Assembly: GCA_964655125.1 (NCBI GenBank)
Contig: CAZZLT010000046.1
Coordinates: 14,480-78,479 of the forward strand
Direction: 5' to 3'
Source of the DNA: an uncultured Desulfurococcaceae archaeon
GTDB lineage: Archaea > Thermoproteota > Thermoprotei_A > Sulfolobales > NBVN01
Length of the DNA: 64,000 nucleotides
Shown: in pieces, positions 3 to 48,181 of the stretch
How positions within the stretch are numbered: the first letter of the stretch is position 1
How the letters are laid out: the number at the start of each line of letters is the position of its first letter
Made by a program: the position numbers and the translations under genes
The notes under the pieces: model-generated
The model's database searches: none
What the model was told of the DNA's origin: nothing
The model's input: only the letters and a program-made list of their open reading frames with translations

Positions 3-227
3 AGTAGTGAGTCTTTAAGTAGGCTTAAATCATTAGTTAACGATTTAAGAGGTTTAGGTAAGGACTTAAGCGTATCTACTGAAGTACTAGCTAGTTACTT
101 AATGCTTTCTAGAGATGTGTATCCAAGACCTGAAGACCCTATTAAGGAATTAATAAGTAGGAAGTCATATATTAGTTATGAAGATGTTCAGAGCATATTA
201 AAAATCTATAGTAGGTATGTAACTTAA
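3..227 (+). CDS. 3' end of an unidentified gene (partial, runs off the window start)
   Basis: Frame open from base 3 to TAA at 225-227 (74 codons, ...LKSLVNDLRGLGKDLSVSTEVLASYL...YSRYVT*). Codon usage matches the host. No recognisable domain. Overlaps the thrC stop by 4 nt. Confidence 0.35.
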   Translation, partial: SSESLSRLKSLVNDLRGLGKDLSVSTEVLASYLMLSRDVYPRPEDPIKELISRKSYISYEDVQSILKIYSRYVT

Positions 228-1440
228 TCACTCATCACTAACTTCTTAATAGTTTTTATAGCTGCTTCAGCATCAGCTACTACCACACGATCTACCTCAT
301 AGTTTAACATTACGTCAGGGTCCTTCAACGCATGTCCAGTAGCAATAGCTACTACTACCTCATCACCTCTAATAACACCTAAATCTACAGCTTTCTTAAC
401 ACCAGCTATAGATGCTGCACTAGCTGGTTCAACACCTAAACCCTCCAACCTAGCTAGGTCTTTCTGAGCGTTTAAGATCTCTAAATCACTAACACTTAAC
501 GCATACCCTCTACTCTCATTAAGTACTCTTAAAGCTCTCTCCCAATGGACTGGACTACCGATCCTGATTGCTGAGGCTATAGTCTCTACCTTACTCTCAG
601 GTACGTAGCTACCGTTGTGGAAGGCCTTAACTATAGGTGATGCCCCCTCCGCCTGTACAGCTAATACCTTAGGTAACTTCCTAATCAATCCTAAAACCTT
701 CAACTCCTTAAGCCCCTTCCATAGGGATGTTATATTACCTGCGTTACCTACAGGTAATACTATCCAGTCAGGAACTCCTAACTCATCAACAATTTCATAA
801 CCTACTGTCTTCTGACCCTCAATCCTCCAAGGATTAACTGAGTTGAGGGGGTATACGTTGGGGTCGTTAGCTAACTCCATAATCACCTTCATAGCTGTGT
901 CGAAACCACCTTCAACTTCAATTACTGTAGCACCGTAGAGTAAACCCTGACCCATCTTACCCTTAGCAATACCGTTCTTAGGAACTACTAGGATAGGTTT
1001 AAGCCCTGCCCTCCTAGCATATGCAGCCATACTAGATGATGTATTACCTGTTGATGCGCAGACAACAGCTTTAACACCTAAGTACTTAGCTATAGTGATC
1101 GCTACAGTCATACCCCTATCCTTAAAACTACCTGTTGGGTTAGCACCTTCGAACTTAACGTAAAGGTTAGTAAGTCTTAAAGGCCTACCTAGATTAGCAA
1201 CACGTATTAGAGGCGTCCCACCCTCATAAAGTGTTACTATCTCAGCATCCTTAGGTACAGGTATTAACTCTCTATACCTCCACACGTGGAATTTCCTACC
1301 TCTGAATAATTCCCAACTGACCTCAACATCTAGAGACCTTAACTCAACCCTGAGAAGACCTCCACAATCACAGAAGACTCTACGACTTAATAACTCGTAC
1401 TCTCTACCACACCTCTCACAAACTAATAGGTTTGGAACAT
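224..1440 (-). CDS. thrC: Threonine synthase (PLP-dependent) with N-terminal zinc-ribbon domain. Start unresolved: the open frame runs to 1471 and the first canonical in-frame start is GTG at 1285.
   Basis: FKDRGMTVAITIAKYLG PLP-lysine motif and GNAGN loop. The frame upstream of the listed ORF encodes LLVCERCGREY...FCDCGG (CxxC..CxC). SD GGTGG lies 5 nt before ATG 1440..1438, which is +1 out of frame. Confidence 0.9.
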
Positions 1441-1532
1441 CTAAACCACCGTAAATCCTATACTCAAGGACTTAAATACTTATCGTTTACTTAGTAAAGA
1501 CTATAAATTATTAGTTGTAATGTGTTTATTAG

Positions 1533-3837: not shown

Positions 3838-4317
3838 TTATACTTGTTCAGGTTCTAAAGGTGAGAAATCTATTTCAGCATCATACTTTCTAACTATCTT
3901 AACACCCTTTAACTCCATAATAACTACATCTGATGTTACTAGTATTGGGTTTCCACCCTTAACTAAGTGTCCTCCATGTACGTGGCCCCACTGATCACAT
4001 ACTGCTCCGTGAATATGTGTTAACCTACTACCCTTCTCATCCTTACCAACAACACCTGAACCACCTAAGAATGATAGTGGTCCTACAATCTCTTTAGGTG
4101 GGCTATAACTAGCACCGATTTTAACGTTAGGGTTAGGTATGAAGTACATTACTGTTGCCTTAGCTAGTGTCCCAGTACCTACATCAACATAAGCATAATC
4201 AATACCTAAATCATCACAAACCTTCTCAATACCTTCAATAATATCAGTACCTGGTTGAAGTCTAACAACTACAACCCTACTGATAGAACCAACAGCAGAC
4301 TTAAACCTAACAACCAA
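3838..4317 (-). CDS. PPC/DUF296-family protein (PD1-like DNA-binding fold)
   Basis: RVVVVRLQPGTDIIEGIEKV ... THIHGAV..WGHVHGGHLVKG ... VVIMEL pattern typical of DUF296. TTG start 5 nt after GGTGG. Confidence 0.65.
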   Translation of the reverse strand: MVVRFKSAVGSISRVVVVRLQPGTDIIEGIEKVCDDLGIDYAYVDVGTGTLAKATVMYFIPNPNVKIGASYSPPKEIVGPLSFLGGSGVVGKDEKGSRLTHIHGAVCDQWGHVHGGHLVKGGNPILVTSDVVIMELKGVKIVRKYDAEIDFSPLEPEQV

Positions 4318-4665: not shown

Positions 4666-6549
4666 GTGTTTAAGGGTTATGCTGGTCAAATACTTAAAAT
4701 TAATTTATCAACTAAGGATGTGGTGAAGGAGGCTCTTACAGAAGGTTTAATTAAGGATTACTTAGGTGGTTTAGGTCTTGCAGCTAAGTTATACTACGAT
4801 TTAGTACCACCACGTATAGATCCTTACGACCCAGCTAACGTAGTTATATTTACTGCAGGACCTGTACAAGGCACCCTCATACCTGGTTCAGGTAGGGGTT
4901 TGTTTATCTCGAAATCACCACTAACTAATAGGTTCTTTAATTCTAATCTTGGAGGCTTCATAAGTAGTGAGTTGAAGAGGGCTGGTTATGATGTTGTAGT
5001 TATATCTGGGAGGGCTGAGAAACCAGTCTACATAGTTATTGATGATGATAGGGTTGAGGTTAGAGATGCTTCGTATTTATGGGGTAAGACTACCTACGAA
5101 ACTCAGAAGATTATTACTGAAGACCTCGGTGATCCTAAATTCCAAGTAGCTTGTATAGGTCCTGCAGGTGAGAACTTAGTTAGATTCTCAGCTATAATAC
5201 ATCCAACACCACCTGAATGTCATGCAGCTGGTCGTGGTGGTATTGCCTCAGTAATGGCTTCAAAGAATCTTAAAGCTATAGCTGTACGTGGGAGTAAGGA
5301 GGTTGAAGTAGCTGATAAGGATAGTATGATCTCTTTCTTTAAGGAGATAGCTGAGAAGTGTAGGAAGCATCCATTCTTACCGACTTACGGAACTCTAGGT
5401 GTTTTAGGGACTATTAATAGGTTAGGTGGTCTCGGAACTAGGAATTGGCAGACTGAGGTATTTGAAGGTGCTGATAAGATTCGTGGGGAGACTGTAATAC
5501 CTAAGTATAAGATTGCTGATAAGGCATGTGCTTCATGTCCTATGGGTTGTGTTAAAGTAACTAAGGTTACTGAGGGTAAGTGGGTTGGTACTGTAGTTAA
5601 GGGTCCTGAGTATGAGACTCTATATTCTTTAGGTTCTATGGTTGGTGTTGATGATTTCGGAGCTATTGCTAAAGCCTCTAGATTATGTGATGAATATGGA
5701 TTAGATACTATATCTACAGGTGTTGTTATAGCATTCGCTATGGAGGCTTATGAGAAGGGTATAATAACTAAGGAGGAGGCTGAAGGTCTAGAGCTTAGGT
5801 TTGGTGATGGTGATGCTGTAGTTGAGATGGTGGAGAGGATTGCTTTTAGGAAGGGTTGGTTAGGTAACTTACTTGCTGAAGGTGTTGCTAGAGCTTCTCA
5901 AGTAATTGGATGTGGTTCTCAGTACTTCGCAATGCATTTTAAAGGTTTAGAACTAGCTGGACACTCACCAAGAGCTGTTAAAGCATGGACTCTAGGCTAT
6001 TCAGTAGGTTGGAGAGGTGGTTCACACCATGATGCAAGACCACATGATATAGAGTATGCTAACCCAGTCGAGGTTAGAGCCTTCAGTACTGAAGGTAAGG
6101 CTGAGATAATATATGACACAACTTTAAGAGTTATGATTGAGGAAAGCTTAATAACTTGTAGATTTTTTGGAGGTTACTACGGTGTGAGAACACCTGGTGA
6201 GACACATGCTAAGATCCTTAAGATGGTTACAGGTATTGAGTGGAGTGTTGAAGAACTCATTAGGATAGCTAAGAGGATTAGGACTTTAATTAGGTGTTTA
6301 GAGGTTAGAGACGGTTTTGACGTTAGGACAGACCTAAACGCACCACCACCAAGGATACTTTACGAACCAATACCTGAAGGAACTTCAAAAGGTGCTTATA
6401 CAAGTCCTAAGGAGTTTAAAGCCATGATTAAGAAATTCTATGATTTAATTGGTTGGGATTTAAAAACAGGTATTCCTAAATCAGAGAATCTGAAGGAATT
6501 AGGTCTTGACTTCGTAATCGAGGATTTTAAGAAATTAAAACTACTTTAA
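4666..6549 (+). CDS. aor: Aldehyde:ferredoxin oxidoreductase family (tungstopterin enzyme)
   Basis: N-terminus FKGYAGQILKINLST matches the family MYGYAGKILRVNL pattern. Also CASCPMGC Fe-S ligands and EYETLYSLGS. The ORF is open from 4651; GTG 4666 fits the family N-terminus and follows GGTG. Confidence 0.9.
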   Translation: MFKGYAGQILKINLSTKDVVKEALTEGLIKDYLGGLGLAAKLYYDLVPPRIDPYDPANVVIFTAGPVQGTLIPGSGRGLFISKSPLTNRFFNSNLGGFISSELKRAGYDVVVISGRAEKPVYIVIDDDRVEVRDASYLWGKTTYETQKIITEDLGDPKFQVACIGPAGENLVRFSAIIHPTPPECHAAGRGGIASVMASKNLKAIAVRGSKEVEVADKDSMISFFKEIAEKCRKHPFLPTYGTLGVLGTINRLGGLGTRNWQTEVFEGADKIRGETVIPKYKIADKACASCPMGCVKVTKVTEGKWVGTVVKGPEYETLYSLGSMVGVDDFGAIAKASRLCDEYGLDTISTGVVIAFAMEAYEKGIITKEEAEGLELRFGDGDAVVEMVERIAFRKGWLGNLLAEGVARASQVIGCGSQYFAMHFKGLELAGHSPRAVKAWTLGYSVGWRGGSHHDARPHDIEYANPVEVRAFSTEGKAEIIYDTTLRVMIEESLITCRFFGGYYGVRTPGETHAKILKMVTGIEWSVEELIRIAKRIRTLIRCLEVRDGFDVRTDLNAPPPRILYEPIPEGTSKGAYTSPKEFKAMIKKFYDLIGWDLKTGIPKSENLKELGLDFVIEDFKKLKLL

Positions 6550-6561
6550 CTTCTAACCTTA

Positions 6562-6566
6562 TTTTT
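6562..6566 (+). terminator. T5 tract just after the AOR stop
   Basis: atttttatg lies 13 nt downstream of the stop codon. Confidence 0.25.
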
Positions 6567-6608
6567 ATGTTAATAACTTATTAAGTCTAGGTTGAATATC
6601 TCTCGGTG

Positions 6609-7336
6609 ATGTTACGGTCTTCATAGATCAGAGTAAATGTATTGGTTGTGGTATATGTATTCCTTACTGTCCTAGGAATGCTATTAAGTTAAGTCCTGAG
6701 ACTAGGAAGGCGTATATAGTTACATCAGAATGTGTTGAGTGTGGTACGTGTGTTAGGGTTGTACTATGTCCTAGGGATGCTATTGTAGGTGTTGTTGAGG
6801 GCTATACTAGGGAGGTTAGAGGACATTTCAGTGACCCAATCGCTCAACACCCAAGTACTGGTATTCCTGGTAGGGGTACTGAGGAGATGAAGACTAACGA
6901 CGTTACAGGTAGGTTTAGGAGGGGTGAGGTCGGCTTCGCATTAGATATCGGTAGACCCTTAGTAGGTGTTACCTTCGCTGAAGTTGGTAGGTTCATTAAA
7001 GTACTTAACGAGGTTGGTGTTGAGTGGGAGAAGGCTAACCCAATACTATACCTACTTAAGGATTTGAAGGAAGGTAAATTCCCTGACGAGTTAATGAATG
7101 AGAAAATACATTCAGCAGTCCTAGAGTTTAAAGTACCTATAGGTAAGGTTAAGGATGTTATTGAGAAACTTAAGTACTTAGCTGAGACTACAGATACTGT
7201 ATTTAGTGTTGGTGTTATCTCTAGAGTTGAACCGGACTTCACAATACCTGTAGTTAATATCTTAAAGGAGTTAGGTCTTGAAGTAAGTCCTTGGGCTAAG
7301 ACAAACGTAGGTTTAGGGAGGCCATTAATAGAGTAG
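6609..7336 (+). CDS. 2x[4Fe-4S] ferredoxin-domain protein with an uncharacterised C-terminal domain (module copy 1, protein A1). Start unresolved: the frame is open from 6596.
   Basis: The frame upstream of the listed 6887 ORF encodes VTVFIDQSKCIGCGICIPYCP...CVECGTCVRVVLCP. It is collinear with its paralog at 62902..63654 (MVYLYINPNKCVACTHCVPFCP...) and shares GRGTEEMKTNDVTGRF. There is no in-frame ATG/GTG/TTG before 6887. Confidence 0.75.
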
Positions 7337-12149: not shown

Positions 12150-12241
12150 ACCAACTACCTCTAAATACTTATATTTACAGATATAAATATTTACGTCTAT
12201 AAATATAAGTTATAACTTCATTAACTTATTAGGTGGTGTAA

Positions 12242-12571
12242 CTGGAAAGTACTAAAGCTTATGAGAGATTAAAGAGGAAGTTAACCATAGAGAATTTATG
12301 GTTATACATAATTAAGATTCTAAAGGATGAGGGGGAGTTAAGAGCTTACGATATTAAGAAGTACTTAACAACGTATTTCAATTTAAGACCTGCTACTATA
12401 ACTGTGTACTCAGTAATATATAGGATGGTTAGGGAGGGGTTAATAGTAGATGTTAAGATGGTTGACGGCACCCGTTACAGAGTTACTGAGAAAGGGTTAG
12501 AAACCTTTAAACAAGGACTTAACTATATCAATGAATTACTTAAGATATTAAGTGATAGCCGTAGTGAGTAG
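12242..12571 (+). CDS. PadR-like winged-helix transcription regulator (not in the ORF track; start codon non-canonical or unresolved)
   Basis: Open frame LESTKAYERLKRKLTIENLWLYIIKILKDEGELRAYDIKKYL...TVYSVIYRMVREGLIV...YRVTEKG. The first canonical in-frame start would remove helix 1. CTG 12242 lies 3-5 nt after AGGTGGTG. Confidence 0.65.
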   Translation: MESTKAYERLKRKLTIENLWLYIIKILKDEGELRAYDIKKYLTTYFNLRPATITVYSVIYRMVREGLIVDVKMVDGTRYRVTEKGLETFKQGLNYINELLKILSDSRSE

Positions 12572-44256: not shown

Positions 44257-45428
44257 TCACCTCACTGATATCTCAGGAGGTATTTTTAAGTCTTTATGCT
44301 TACAATCATATTCACTACTCACTATAGATTTTATAATCCTCACTAACTCATCATAACCTATGTTAAGTCCTTGATCACCTAACTCTTTAACCCTAGCTAA
44401 CACTTTACTAACTATATCATCACTAGGTTCAACCCCTAACTGCTTTAATACGTACATTACCGCATGCTTCCCACTATGTTTACCGAGTACGATCCTCCTC
44501 TTAGCACCTACTACTGAGGGGTCTATAGGTTCGTATGTTAGTGGATTAGTCAGTACCCCATGTACATGTATTCCAGACTCGTGTGAGAACGCATTAATAC
44601 CTACTATTGGTTTATTAGGATTAATAGGTATTCTAAATAGTTCAGAGACTAATATTGCAGTACTAAGTATGTGTTCAAACCTTATGTTAGTCTTAAGCCC
44701 GAGTACGAATGCTATTGAAGTAACTACCTCCTCTAATGCTGCATTACCAGCCCTCTCACCAACTCCTAATACAGTAACATGTACTTGATCTGCTCCGGCC
44801 TCAATAGCTGTAACACTATTAGCTACAGCCATACCGAAATCGTTATGACAGTGAACACTTAATATGTAATTACCTCTAACGTTATCTCTAATATGTTTGA
44901 CTAAGCCATACATCCTTGTAGGTATCATAACACCTACTGTATCAGCTATATCAACTCTATCAGCTCCAGCATTAACTACTTCCTGGAATACCCTGGTCAG
45001 GAATACTAAATCACTTCTAGTAGAGTCCTCAGCACTGAACTCTATAGTTAGTCCGTGTGATTTAGCGTACTCGATAGCATCTACAGCCTTCTCTACAACC
45101 TCCTCACGACTCATACGTAATTTATACTTCATATGGATATCCGATGTAGCTATAAACAGATGTATAGCTTTACAATCAGCATCTATAACCCTATCAATAT
45201 CATCCTTAGTAGTCCTTGCTAAGGCTATAACTTCAGAACTCCTTACCTCCTTACTAATCATCTTAACAGCTAAGAACTCCCCACTACTCGTTATAGGGAA
45301 TCCAGCCTCTATAGAATCAACACCTAACTCCTCTAAAGCTAAAGCAATCCTTAACTTATCCTCAGGTCTTAAAGCAACACCAGGTGTTTGTTCACCGTCT
45401 CTTAATGTAGTATCTAAGATACGTACAT
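44257..45428 (-). CDS. leuA: 2-Isopropylmalate/citramalate/homocitrate synthase family enzyme (short form, no LeuA regulatory domain). Start unresolved: the frame is open to 45528.
   Basis: The in-frame upstream region encodes VRILDTTLRDGEQTPGVALRPEDKLRIALALEELGVDSIEAGFP (catalytic DRE-TIM N-terminus), which is absent from the listed ORF starting at 45261. Also HCHNDFGMAVAN and HESGIH. No in-frame ATG/GTG/TTG between 45261 and 45528. Confidence 0.9.
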
Positions 45429-45536
45429 GTTTTGGATTTAAATTACGTTTTAAACTGAATTCGGGACTAGCAATAGGGATCCCGAAGAAATAGGAGGTTG
45501 GGGAATAAAAACTTTTCCGTTTAAGTCTTCAGTGAA

Positions 45537-47275: not shown

Positions 47276-47432
47276 ACTTTATACCTCATAAACATCTAAT
47301 AATAACTTTAAATATTTGCTTAAGTTAGTTGAATAACCTCTATATTTAAGTTATCAAACGATAAAACTTATATACTCAACACATATAGATAAACCTACGG
47401 TGTAGGCGATGGCACTCCAAAACTGAATACGT

Positions 47433-48181
47433 ATGAAGTCAATCAAATAAAACTCCTTTCAGAATATGTTAGAACCACTGTAATAGATCTTCATCGTGTT
47501 GAGAAGAACCTCCATATGGGTTCTACATTAAGTTGTATAGAGATACTGACTGTATTAATTACTAAGTACGTGAGGAGGGGCTCAGATAAATTAAATAGGG
47601 ATTGGTTAATCTTAAGTAAGGGTCATGCAGCACCAGCATTATACACATTATTAGCTGAGGTAGGTATTATACCTAAGGAGGAGTTAGTTAAGATCCAATC
47701 TATTAACTCTATACTTCAAGGACATCCAGACATATCCATCCCTGGAGTTGATATGTCTACAGGTAGTTTAGGGCAGGGTCTAAGTTTTGCTGTAGGTATT
47801 GCTACGTGGATTAAATTCAAAGGTGGTTATGGGAGGGTTTACGTAGTTATGGGTGATGGTGAACAGGATGAAGGTGAGGTTTGGGAAGCTATGACGAACG
47901 CAGTTCATAGAGGTTTAGATAACTTACTAGTGATTATTGATGTTAATGATTATCAATTAGATGGGAGGACTGCTGAGGTTAAACCTAAACATTACATGCC
48001 CTTGATTTGGAGAGTAGTTGGTTGGGAGGTGTTCATATGTGATGGTCATGATGTAGTCAGTCTAATTAACTCAATAGATAATGCTCTAGGTTGTAGGAGG
48101 CCATCAGTAATCTTCGCTAGAACTGTTAGGGGTAGAGGGCTTAAACCTATAGAAGGTACTGAGTTACAGAGGGTTGAGTGA
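47433..48181 (+). CDS. Transketolase, N-terminal (TPP-binding) subunit. Start unresolved: the frame is open from 47393.
   Basis: The listed ORF starts at the Met of ...NLHMGSTLS, removing the conserved His of the GH.G..LS motif. In-frame upstream sequence [27 protein letters not shown] has no canonical start. [13 protein letters not shown] motif present. Confidence 0.85.

Follow-up and report, generated by a model that had tools for sequence, protein, structure and literature searches.

Conserved archaeal genes without canonical start codons, and a candidate start-linked frame change at thrC

Near-cognate start codons are an established feature of prokaryotic translation: infC of E. coli begins with AUU, and translation table 11 allows CUG, AUA, AUC and AUU. 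ACG is no accepted start in this table, and we know of no documented archaeal ACG start. Overlapping stop and start codons (ATGA, TAATG) couple termination to reinitiation in both bacteria and archaea, and archaea possess initiation factors of eukaryotic type. Ambiguous initiation takes place at AUGUG and GUGUG sequences in E. coli, where the overlapping codon is a canonical GUG start (PMC9841429). In mammalian cells, start-codon-associated ribosomal frameshifting (SCARF) has been described as low-level, stress-induced noise (bioRxiv 10.1101/2023.02.15.528768). Meanwhile, classical programmed -1 frameshifting is known from the fucA1 gene of Saccharolobus solfataricus (PMC8211752).

The window analysed here is a stretch of 64,000 nucleotides whose source lineage belongs to the uncultured hot-spring Thermoproteota ('Sulfolobales archaeon' MAGs, related to Ignisphaera). 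Five of its approximately 64 genes carry conserved N-terminal coding sequence 5′ of the first in-frame ATG, GTG or TTG, namely thrC, leuA, a ferredoxin-domain gene (fdx), the transketolase-N gene (tkt) and a PadR gene. In descending order, the five ORFs hold 97, 89, 62, 54 and 41 start-less codons, as against 20 or fewer in all other real genes of the window. This makes them the most extreme real genes by this count, and bears out the claim of an earlier sequence-only reading that the missing canonical starts are not due to chance. The Pfam domains HMGL-like, Fer4, Transketolase_N and PadR all set in 5′ of the first canonical start. The start codons of ordinary genes (ATG, GTG or TTG) are retained in relatives. 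No internal stops or frameshifts were found in the five genes. Values of dN/dS of 0.07-0.28 for the thrC zinc ribbon, where synonymous sites are saturated, and of 0.10-0.19 for fdx, tkt, leuA and PadR point to purifying selection on all five genes and argue that their upstream sequence is translated. The five genes are intact and selected, and their canonical starts were lost or never present. On balance, we lean towards the view that they are translated from non-canonical initiation sites, by more than one mechanism. An Rfam scan of the window matched only a tRNA-Pro, and none of the known RNA families at the 5′ ends of these genes.

The features of the thrC locus are the following:
224..1438, minus strand: thrC coding frame (VPNLLVCERCG... 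up to the stop), read from the third base of the out-of-frame ATG
1283..1285, minus strand: first canonical in-frame start, a GTG (Val before WRYRELIP), from which gene callers begin a 353-aa protein
1423..1440, minus strand: five-codon frame MFQTY, whose TAG stop overlaps the in-frame TTA GTT just before the first Cys
1438..1440, minus strand: out-of-frame ATG, its G being base 1 of the in-frame GTT; the sole conserved initiation-like codon
1446..1450, minus strand: GGTGG Shine-Dalgarno (SD)-like motif, 5 nt 5′ of the ATG
1472..1479, minus strand: TATA-like box TATTTAAG, 30 nt 5′ of the ATG; putative promoter

The product combines a zinc-ribbon N-domain with a PLP-dependent catalytic domain (PALP match). 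Its N-terminus, VPNLLVCERCGREYELLSRRVFCDCGG..., forms a CxxC...CxC ribbon that is common to archaeal ThrC homologues, and an AF2 model is ordered from Pro13-Asn14, with NLLVC as its first strand. On the minus strand, no stop interrupts the frame between 1471 and GTG 1285, and these 62 codons contain no ATG, GTG or TTG. The arrangement GGTGG-tttag-ATG matches in motif and spacing the GGTGG-tttaa-TTG of a normal gene (3838..4317), and the whole promoter geometry (TATA-like box, 30 nt, ATG, GGTGG at -10..-6) equals that of this gene. In normal genes, 4 to 8 nt separate the SD from the start. The sequence-only reading had described the open frame, the ribbon, the ATG one nucleotide out of frame with its short MFQTY frame, and the spacing shared with the gene at 4317, and each of these descriptions proved exact.

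An artefact of sequencing or assembly could in principle lie behind these observations, or else mutations that inactivated the genes recently; ThrC would then consist of nothing but the 353-aa core that starts at GTG 1285. The bacterial ThrC structures 2zsj, 2d1f and 1uim are without the zinc ribbon and align from WRYRELIP, so such a core enzyme could be active, and the ATG-to-ACG changes at fdx and tkt are strain-specific. However, the thrC start is identical in at least five independent assemblies (L003-L007; ENA, Logan), with no sequence difference among ENA megahit, Logan and JGI assemblies of different samples, and the fdx start is identical in the ENA assemblies L003 and L004. Among the options of the sequence-only reading was a site-specific artefact, a missing G that would appear as a plain ATGG in orthologues. 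This option is refuted, as relatives at 70-97% identity keep the offset instead (L001, L002, L008-L010, L171, L172, L176). Its remark that the long genes of the window show no internal frameshift was upheld across those genes. The low ribbon dN/dS and the intactness of the other genes speak against pseudogenes. An internal start at GTG 1285 was rejected: this codon is GTG, GTA, ATG, TTA or CTA in relatives, and therefore no start is conserved there. We regard this reading as largely refuted already and extremely improbable, and we are highly confident that non-canonical initiation is real and that an artefact is excluded.

The sequence-only reading had further proposed that the ATG geometry of thrC recurs at leuA (45428), fdx (6609), tkt (47433) and PadR (12261). 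An NAT-G junction is indeed present at all four. As a shared pattern, however, it does not exceed chance. In 61 genes of the window, an AT-G spans the codon boundary at 3.9% of codons, the probability of at least one per 10 codons is 0.33, and 57% of the ATGs in the boundary-spanning frame run into a stop after no more than 5 codons (median 4). The caution that some of these ATG coincidences could be chance was thus well placed. The window has 17 instances of GGTG followed after 4-9 nt by an ATG in the offset geometry, most of them within genes. The SD+ATG motif gave 56 matches in the -1 and 5 in the +1 geometry, again mostly within genes; these numbers are uninformative as enrichment, because codon composition alone yields them, and it also makes SD-like GGTG plus ATG common inside genes. 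The out-of-frame ATGs by the fdx, PadR and leuA starts and tkt 47433 trace to the SD or to codon pairs, and comparison with relatives shows those at fdx, PadR and tkt 47433 to be incidental. They are best read as chance NAT-G codon pairs, and the proposed geometry as mostly coincidence; a single mechanism for all five loci is not supported.

At fdx and PadR, the in-frame sequence offers a different start:
6609..6611, plus strand: incidental out-of-frame ATG at fdx, part of GGTG-ATG and within the SD
6614..6616, plus strand: in-frame ACG, probable fdx start (gene 6614..7336), preceded by GGTGA (6605..6609) and 4 nt
12242..12244, plus strand: in-frame CTG, probable PadR start (gene 12242..12571), the first codon after an in-frame TAA

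All fdx homologues begin with MV(F/L)I... exactly at the ACG codon. This codon is ATG in P0241/L175, a 94% relative, and in more than 10 homologues, and ACG in the window, L003 and L004. The GGTGA-TGTT spacer of L175 is the same as in the window, and GGTGATGTT is also found in L175, whose normal ATG start comes 2 nt further on. Hence fdx very probably starts at ACG 6614. In the PadR gene, the CTG follows GGTGG (12232..12236) after 5 nt, and both are conserved in L175. The codons 3′ of the CTG differ from those of L175 by synonymous changes (GCT to GCC, TAT to TAC), with Sd 11.5 versus Nd 4.5 over the first 54 codons, and one in-frame synonymous TAT-to-TAC change turns the out-of-frame ATG into ACG in the relative. 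CTG 12242 is thus the probable PadR start.

The candidates at leuA and tkt are the following:
45426..45428, minus strand: non-conserved out-of-frame leuA ATG, which is ACG in L091 through an in-frame synonymous CAT-to-CAC change
45457..45459, minus strand: in-frame leuA TTC, aligned with the TTG start of L174 and the called ATA start of L173
45472..45474, minus strand: in-frame leuA ATT, candidate start, 29 nt 3′ of a TATA-like TTTTTATT (45504..45511)
47409..47411, plus strand: conserved out-of-frame tkt ATG, 6 nt after GGTG 47399..47402, its G being base 1 of GGC
47429..47431, plus strand: in-frame tkt ACG, alternative start, which is ATG in the 94% relative L091

The leuA ATT GCT is conserved in the window, L091, L173 and L174, and its only SD-like signal is GGGA at -9..-6. 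A leuA start at ATT 45474, or at TTC 45459 in the position of the relative's TTG, is to us an evenly balanced proposition. The Transketolase_N domain begins about 5 codons 3′ of ACG 47429, and no GGTG SD lies within 10 nt of this codon. That tkt starts at this ACG, in replacement of ATG, is about as likely true as false. Tkt ATG 47433 corresponds to a Tyr-Glu codon pair. The geometry of ATG 47409 recurs in four relatives, including L091, L173 and L174, with the ORF frame open from its G. In L173, one nucleotide is inserted upstream of this ATG, and the in-frame codon two positions before it is a TAA. ATG 47409 was not among the loci listed by the sequence-only reading. A GTDB genome scan with LeuC retrieved only relatives of at most 70% identity, without adjacent leuA and tkt genes. 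Taken together, the option of non-canonical initiation codons raised by that reading is the best explanation for fdx and PadR, and probably for tkt and leuA, and we infer that ACG, CTG and ATT are used as start codons.

The situation differs at thrC, where eight relatives (70-100% identity) were compared. The out-of-frame site is ATG in the window, L001, L002, L008/L009, L010 and L172, ACG in L171 and ATA in L176, so that, barring these last two, it is the only promoter- and SD-positioned initiation codon. GGTG(G/A) followed after 5-6 nt by A(T/C)(G/A) is conserved in all eight, and the ORF always begins at the third base; from that base on, its frame is uninterrupted in every relative, as it would be at a SCARF-like site. 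A TATA-like box occupies the equivalent place in L008, L010 and L172, at a distance of 30 nt, and in L171, at 34 nt. L001 carries one additional T that displaces the upstream frame and leaves the relation of ATG and ORF unchanged. An in-frame stop lies one codon upstream of the site in L008, L171 and L176, and between the in-frame stop and Pro-Asn no near-cognate codon is found in L008, L010, L171 or L176. Against a role of the ATG, it arises as a by-product of Tyr/Asp-Ala/Val codons, is replaced by ACG or ATA in two relatives, and recurs in the outgroup L177, for which a start further upstream is called.

Several other ways to start thrC were considered and rejected. The in-frame ATT 1456..1454 lies only 14 nt 3′ of the TATA-like box, is off frame in L001 and is cut off by in-frame stops in L008, L010, L171 and L176. 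The GTG within GGTGG is in frame in L001 only and falls in the other two frames elsewhere. An upstream exon joined by removal of a BHB intron was dismissed, as a divergent HD gene begins at a distance of only 92 nt and the promoter allows a leader of only ~7-10 nt. Control by leader-peptide attenuation was set aside, with just one Thr codon in the upstream frame of thrC and none for Leu in that of leuA. The thrC gene is left without a usable in-frame start codon, and its out-of-frame start signal is explained by no known mechanism.

The most likely place of ribosome assembly is ATG 1440..1438, which is conserved and well placed with respect to promoter and SD. From there, an initiation-linked change of frame is possible, and we put it forward tentatively. 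Classical programmed -1 frameshifting was rejected: no slippery heptamer X XXY YYZ is present in ATG TTC CAA ACC TAT TAG or its variants (CCC CAA ACC, CTC CAA ACC), at most two of three pairs would be kept on re-pairing after a -1 slip, and MFE folds of the eight relatives share no structure that could serve as a stimulatory hairpin or pseudoknot 5-9 nt 3′ of the site. Nor does a second canonical start begin at the G of the offset AUG, the codons there being GTT, GCC and ACT in thrC, GGC, GCC and GCA in tkt, and GTA in leuA. In the displacement that we envisage, the initiator tRNA would pair with the AUG (or ACG/AUA) set by the SD, whose third base would then open the codon read by the first elongator tRNA. 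The conserved tkt ATG 47409 may work in the same way. To our knowledge, an efficient initiation-linked -1 shift has no precedent in archaea or bacteria (review PMC8211752).

The short frame behind the ATG invites a different interpretation, in which thrC, and possibly tkt, is translated by reinitiation coupled to a uORF. The SD-positioned ATG would open a uORF of 5-8 codons (MFQTY, MPQTN, MALQN or MQFQNIR before the stop), and ribosomes would restart on a main-frame codon just before the first Cys, at TTA-GTT in the window and TTG, ATT or ATA in relatives, to give M-C-E-R-C... with VPNLL untranslated. The uORF stop (after MPQTN, MFQTI or MPQTY in relatives) overlaps TTR plus (G/A)TN in all eight thrC relatives; this overlap with an NTR codon is, however, geometrically automatic. 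The restart codon is a canonical TTG in L171 (TTGA overlap), ATT in L001, L171, L172 and L176, and ATA in L010, whereas the window, L002 and L008 have only TTA GTT, neither a near-cognate of AUG. The L176 protein is called by PGAP from the ATT before the first Cys, and some ThrC homologues begin 1-3 residues before this Cys (MLKCIEC, MSC). CCAAAC, 3′ of the ATG, is invariant at synonymous sites, which implies some constraint that is not protein-coding. Against this stands the pattern of substitution. The two codons around the ATG change synonymously or conservatively when read in the ORF frame (TAT/TAC, GCC/GTT/ACT) and radically in the ATG frame, where residues 2 (P/F/L) and 5 (Y/N/I) of the uORF vary. 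In addition, the in-frame PN/YAPN is shared with outgroups in which it is clearly protein (YAPN at 59% identity), reinitiation would forfeit the first strand of the AF2 model, and the uORF would start with ACG or ATA in two relatives. We therefore consider reinitiation rather unlikely and favour the initiation-linked -1 frame change over it.

Initiation might also be directed by position, with the SD or the short 5′ end setting an in-frame non-cognate codon in the P site (GAT/TAT or GTT/GCC in thrC, GAT or GGC/GCC in tkt) and the ATG left unused. The spacers of GAT (4 nt) and GTT (7 nt) both fall within the normal range, the lineage evidently tolerates weak starts (ACG, CTG, ATT, ATA), and the TAT-to-TAC change in L171 is synonymous in frame. 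Yet GAU, UAU, GUU and GCC each have two or three mismatches to AUG, and an AUG within 1-2 nt of each candidate should win P-site selection. As far as we know, pairing of the initiator tRNA with codons of this type has not been described, and we hold such initiation to be quite improbable.

C-to-U editing creates AUG from ACG in plant organelles, and a correction at the RNA level, by editing or by insertion of a nucleotide into the mRNA, can be conceived here as well. Where strains differ in the start codon, they do so by a T/C change (ATG/ACG at fdx and tkt, ATT/ACT at tkt), and one extra G would solve thrC, as the sequence-only reading had pointed out. Nonetheless, ATGTTCC offers no homopolymer for transcriptional slippage, PadR has CTG and not ACG, and no conserved context of an editing site was seen. 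We know of no mRNA editing or nucleotide insertion in archaea, and we give this explanation hardly any credence.

These findings have implications for the annotation of this lineage. Gene callers truncate ThrC to 353 aa (versus ~405), IPMS to 334 (versus ~390) and the ferredoxin protein to 149 (versus 241), and the same truncated calls recur in public databases for relatives. Consequently, DTTLRDGEQ, the first CxxCxxCxxxCP and the zinc ribbon are missing from deposited proteins, and recognising ACG, CTG and ATT starts in the lineage would mend these annotations. The replacement of ATG by ACG, CTG and ATT/ATA, mostly in genes of amino-acid biosynthesis, suggests relaxed or tuned start selection in a eukaryote-like initiation system. 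Meanwhile, thrC, a conserved and selected ORF whose only AUG is out of frame, is a testable candidate for a start-linked frame change, so far described only as translational noise in mammalian cells.

Compared with known near-cognate starts, fdx, tkt and PadR are alike in having an in-frame codon one base from AUG, backed by an SD in two cases (GGTGA + 4 nt at fdx, GGTGG + 5 nt at PadR), and related MAGs have ATT and ATA starts called by PGAP. They are unlike them in their rate, with five affected genes in one window, and thrC lacks any in-frame near-cognate codon in four relatives. As in termination-reinitiation coupling, a short SD-led frame at thrC ends on the codons preceding the zinc ribbon, with a TTGA overlap in L171; in the lineage of the window, however, ribosomes would have to restart on TTA or GTT, and the skipped region is conserved as protein. 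The fucA1 gene belongs to an archaeon of the same class and likewise encodes an enzyme that needs two frames joined by a -1 shift, whereas thrC has neither the heptamer nor a stimulatory structure and the shift would occur at codon 1-2 and not mid-gene. The +2/-1 offset is that of AUGUG/GUGUG initiation, the G of the AUG being in both the first base of the productive frame; the overlapping codon is a canonical start in E. coli, unlike the GUU, GCC, ACU, GGC or GCA found here. [quoted passage not shown] In contrast to SCARF, an essential enzyme would be made from the shifted frame of thrC alone, a state fixed across divergence at the family level, and the case made here is sequence-based. That thrC and tkt in this archaeal clade depend for their expression on a frame displacement at the start codon that is obligatory and fixed in evolution strikes us as unlikely; if true, it would be a programmed counterpart of mammalian SCARF and would possibly set a low or regulated expression of amino-acid biosynthesis genes.

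Ranking the window's stop-to-stop open reading frames by the codons preceding the first canonical start (ATG, GTG or TTG) singled out five genes: thrC, leuA, a ferredoxin-domain gene (fdx), a transketolase-N gene (tkt) and a PadR gene. Their counts of start-less codons were, in descending order, 97, 89, 62, 54 and 41, against at most 20 in other real genes. In leuA (HMGL-like, from VRILDTT), fdx (Fer4), tkt (transketolase-N) and PadR, a Pfam domain begins 5′ of the first canonical start. The zinc-ribbon codons of thrC (n=51) displayed a pN of 0.07-0.38 with saturated synonymous sites, for a dN/dS of 0.07-0.28, and the other four genes displayed 0.10-0.19 against relatives about 94% identical. 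In the 54 codons upstream of the first canonical start of PadR, differences were 11.5 synonymous versus 4.5 non-synonymous. Meanwhile, the window's ordinary genes retained their ATG, GTG or TTG starts in relatives. The ranking and the low dN/dS indicate that canonical starts are truly missing at these loci, as a previous sequence-only reading had claimed. The assembly artefact that it had listed as an option failed, since independent assemblies agree. The whole thrC start region is the same as the window's in five different ENA/Logan assemblies (L003-L007) and in a 97% relative from JGI (L002), and the ACG at the fdx start also occurs in L003 and L004. A shortened 353-aa ThrC call is present on 12 contigs. 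As judged from sequence, the five loci are neither artefacts nor pseudogenes.

NCBI annotations of related "Sulfolobales archaeon" MAGs use ATT starts for tkt and thrC and ATA for leuA, which suggests that non-canonical starts at these genes are clade-wide and previously unremarked.

Calls with ATT or ATA starts in NCBI-annotated MAGs
L173:3238-4005
L173:6001-7161
L174:3241-4008
L176:1501-2700

N-terminally shortened calls were also found among database homologues of 59-85% identity, in the ferredoxin family (P0256, P0252, P0257; e.g. a 149-aa ferredoxin protein), ThrC (P0015, P0047, P0051, P0071, P0076, P0077, P0102; e.g. 338-349 aa) and IPMS (P0129, P0229; e.g. one beginning MDTTLRDGEQ). The absence of canonical starts may extend past the loci read at the DNA level.

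The earlier reading had unified the five loci by an ATG one nucleotide out of frame. Its descriptions of the sites at leuA, fdx, tkt and PadR were accurate on inspection; the shared geometry is mostly coincidence. Across 61 window genes, 3.9% of codons have AT-G spanning their boundary, which gives P=0.33 that a run of 10 codons holds one or more, and the frame of such an ATG closes within 5 codons 57% of the time (median 4). The window holds 17 instances of GGTG followed after 4-9 nt by an ATG in this geometry, most of them within genes. Over the clade loci, SD-like (Shine-Dalgarno-like) GGTG plus ATG occurs 56 times in this geometry versus 5 at the other offset, an excess due to GGT-Gnn and nAT-Gnn codon usage. 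Given these background rates, the recurrence of NAT-GNN with a frame that soon closes is not evidence in itself.

Every homologue of the fdx family (~240 aa), from the 94% relative L175 through bacterial members, opens with MV(F/L)I(D/N)..C.GCG. The window reads GGTGA-TGTT-ACG GTC TTC ATA GAT and L175 reads GGTGA-TGTT-ATG GTC TTC ATA GAT. The shared N-terminus and the aligned ATG thus point to ACG 6614..6616 as the probable fdx start codon, and the ATG at 6609 listed in the earlier reading is the SD tail, also present in L175. In PadR, GGTGG lies 5 nt before the CTG of TAA-CTG GAA AGT ACT AAA GCT TAT GAG AGA; L175 keeps SD and CTG and continues GAA ACA ACT AAA GCC TAC GAG AGA. Two in-frame synonymous changes turn the proposed ATG into ACG there, suggesting that these codons are translated in frame and that the predicted start is CTG 12242, directly after the stop.

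The 91% relative L091 carries ACG in place of the leuA ATG, owing to an in-frame synonymous CAT to CAC change. N-termini are longer in relatives of 75-79% identity (MSSKPELNSVKYVRILD, MNSGFGLNSTKYVRILD). They start at TTG in L174 and at ATA in L173 (call by PGAP, the gene caller), and both codons align with 45459..45457, a TTC in the window and in L091. All four share an in-frame ATT (45474..45472), which lies 29 nt past a TATA-like TTTTTATT; thrC and the normal gene at 4317 show this same distance. With moderate confidence, we consider this ATT the most plausible leuA start. An inverted repeat upstream of leuA, CGGGAT-(11 nt)-GTCCCG (45462..45484, minus strand), holds the candidate ATT in its loop; in L091 it reads GGGAC...GTCCC, a T.G pair becoming C-G, and the 75% relatives show no recognisable copy.

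In tkt, the ATG at 47433 is a mere Tyr-Glu codon pair (TAT GAA; TAT GAG in L091). Two candidate start sites are predicted, and we prefer neither:
47429, in-frame ACG two codons 5′ of that ATG; ATG in L091 (94% relative here)
47399..47411, GGTG-TAGGCG-ATG, the G of ATG being base 1 of in-frame GGC
The ACG lies at the usual distance from the Pfam domain but lacks an SD. The upstream ATG, its SD and its offset are kept in L091 and two 75% relatives (L173, L174), and a 1-nt insertion 5′ of it in L173 yields an in-frame TAA two codons 5′ of the ATG. The residue following it is G/A/A/A in the coding frame, with a synonymous GCC/GCA difference, and A/P/Q/Q in the ATG frame. PGAP starts tkt in L173 and L174 at an in-frame ATT; the window has ACT at this codon. 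The region also contains an invariant (T)CCAAAA (CCAAAA at 47417..47422), resembling a CCAAAC in thrC. Three to four loci would have near-cognate in-frame starts (ACG, CTG, ATT), one of the options listed in the earlier reading.

Two relatives differed in other respects. L002 (JGI Ga0212122_1000081) carries an insertion between its PCC and AFOR genes (4976-6957) with transketolase fragments among its gene calls (91 aa of Transketolase_C, 82 aa of Transket_pyr, 94 aa unassigned) and ~1 kb without a called gene, which looks like an extra transketolase copy in decay. An Mrp-type antiporter subunit (Proton_antipo_N/M), a single 672-695-aa gene in L002:16332-18350 and L003:16321-18408, is split in the 93% relative (L001:8256-10274) into 505 aa and a 99-aa ORF with 47 start-less codons, probably by a frameshift in that contig.

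The strongest case is thrC, as the earlier reading had judged, with SD, spacing and frame offset constant across relatives. Its minus-strand frame is open from 1471 to a stop at 224, and GTG 1285, the first canonical start, follows 62 start-less codons encoding VPNLLVCERCGREYELLSRRVFCDCGG...; ThrC homologues share the CxxC...CxC ribbon. GGTGG-tttag-ATG (1450..1438) lies one nucleotide out of frame, the G of its ATG being base 1 of in-frame GTT, and opens a frame reading MFQTY and a stop. We compared this region in eight relatives at the DNA level.

Start region of thrC (identity in brackets)
Window and L002: GGTGG-TTTAG-ATG TTC CAA ACC TAT TAG
L172 (71%): GGTGA-TTTAG-ATG TTC...
L001 (93%): GGTGG-TTTTAG-ATG CCC...
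L008 (76%): GGTGA-TTAAT-ATG CCC...; ORF frame TAA TAT GCC CCA AAC
L010 (70%): GGTGG-TTGGT-ATG CCC...; ORF frame TAG GTA TCC GGT GGT TGG TAT GCC
L171 (72%): GGTGG-TTAAT-ACG CCC...; ORF frame TAA TAC GCC
L176 (72%): GGTGG-TTAAT-ATA CTC...; ORF frame TAA TAT ACT

In three lineages, an in-frame stop is followed by one sense codon and then by the codon whose first base is base 3 of the initiation codon. The extra T of L001 alters the upstream frame, so the ORF is non-coding 5′ of the ATG. A TATA-like box precedes the ATG by 30 nt (34 nt in L171), and GGTGG coincides with the predicted 5′ terminus. The normal gene 3838..4317 has a similar layout (TATA, 31 nt, TTG; GGTGG at -10..-6), indicating that the ATG stands where this genome places start codons. 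Among the eight relatives, four lineages have no near-cognate codon 5′ of Pro-Asn. Position could itself direct initiation at a non-cognate in-frame codon, which we consider quite unlikely. The divergent HD-domain gene, with 23 nt from a TATA-like box to its GTG, looks leaderless, and the genome seems to employ both leaderless and SD-at-5′-end architectures. The two divergent start codons are 92 nt apart (1441..1532). In an outgroup MAG (GCA_038730885.1, L177:1-1420), thrC is called from a TTG just 15 nt past the TATA-like TTTATATA, a pair of out-of-frame ATGs (GAT-GAA, TAT-GCG) follow that box by 25 and 31 nt, and further upstream sequence is masked (N).

Several observations favor translation of the stretch between ATG and first Cys in the ORF frame. 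Substitutions there are synonymous or conservative (TAT/TAC; GCC/GTT/ACT = A/V/T) and radical in the ATG frame (P/F/L; Y/N/I). YAPN is common to thrC and an outgroup at 59% identity (MCCDEYAPNRLVC), and PN to Zestosphaera and Acidilobaceae homologues with ordinary starts. AlphaFold assigns pLDDT <50 to 12 upstream residues and order from Pro13-Asn14, with NLLVC as first strand. Against it, CCAAAC (the Pro-Asn codons CCA AAC that follow the ATG, 1429..1434, minus strand) is invariant in the eight relatives and the 59% outgroup at synonymous sites that are otherwise saturated, and Tyr-Ala codons give the outgroup this out-of-frame ATG as a by-product. Furthermore, in five relatives the first Cys is preceded by ATT or ATA, or by a TTG one codon further upstream, and PGAP starts L176 thrC at that ATT. 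Reinitiation right before the first Cys, coupled to a uORF, is a rival that we hold to be rather unlikely. In several relatives, CCAAAC is complementary to part of the SD region (GGTTT/AAACC, TGGTT/AACCA); pairing would leave the ATG in a small loop.

Bacterial ThrC structures without the ribbon would fit an internal-only start, but relatives have GTA, TTA or CTA at 1285, making such a start unlikely; together with RNA-level correction and artefact, it is improbable even jointly. We tentatively rank first that the ribosome would initiate on the thrC ATG and then undergo an immediate -1/+2 displacement. These likelihoods are approximate and apply within thrC, confidence in the whole finding being scaled lower, and we see a minority chance of a mechanistically new process at thrC and tkt.

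These findings make the lineage interesting for its relaxed or unusual choice of start codons: ACG stands for ATG at two genes in one strain, conserved positions carry CTG and ATT/ATA, and thrC is start-less family-wide. Neither a slippery heptamer nor a conserved RNA structure was found at the thrC start among the relatives compared, and the archaeal recoding literature (PMC8211752) holds no comparable case. At E. coli AUGUG sites (PMC9841429) the G-started frame has a canonical start, whereas that of thrC does not. The nearest described phenomenon is the start-codon-associated frameshifting of mammalian cells, ascribed to slippage as initiation passes into elongation (bioRxiv 10.1101/2023.02.15.528768).
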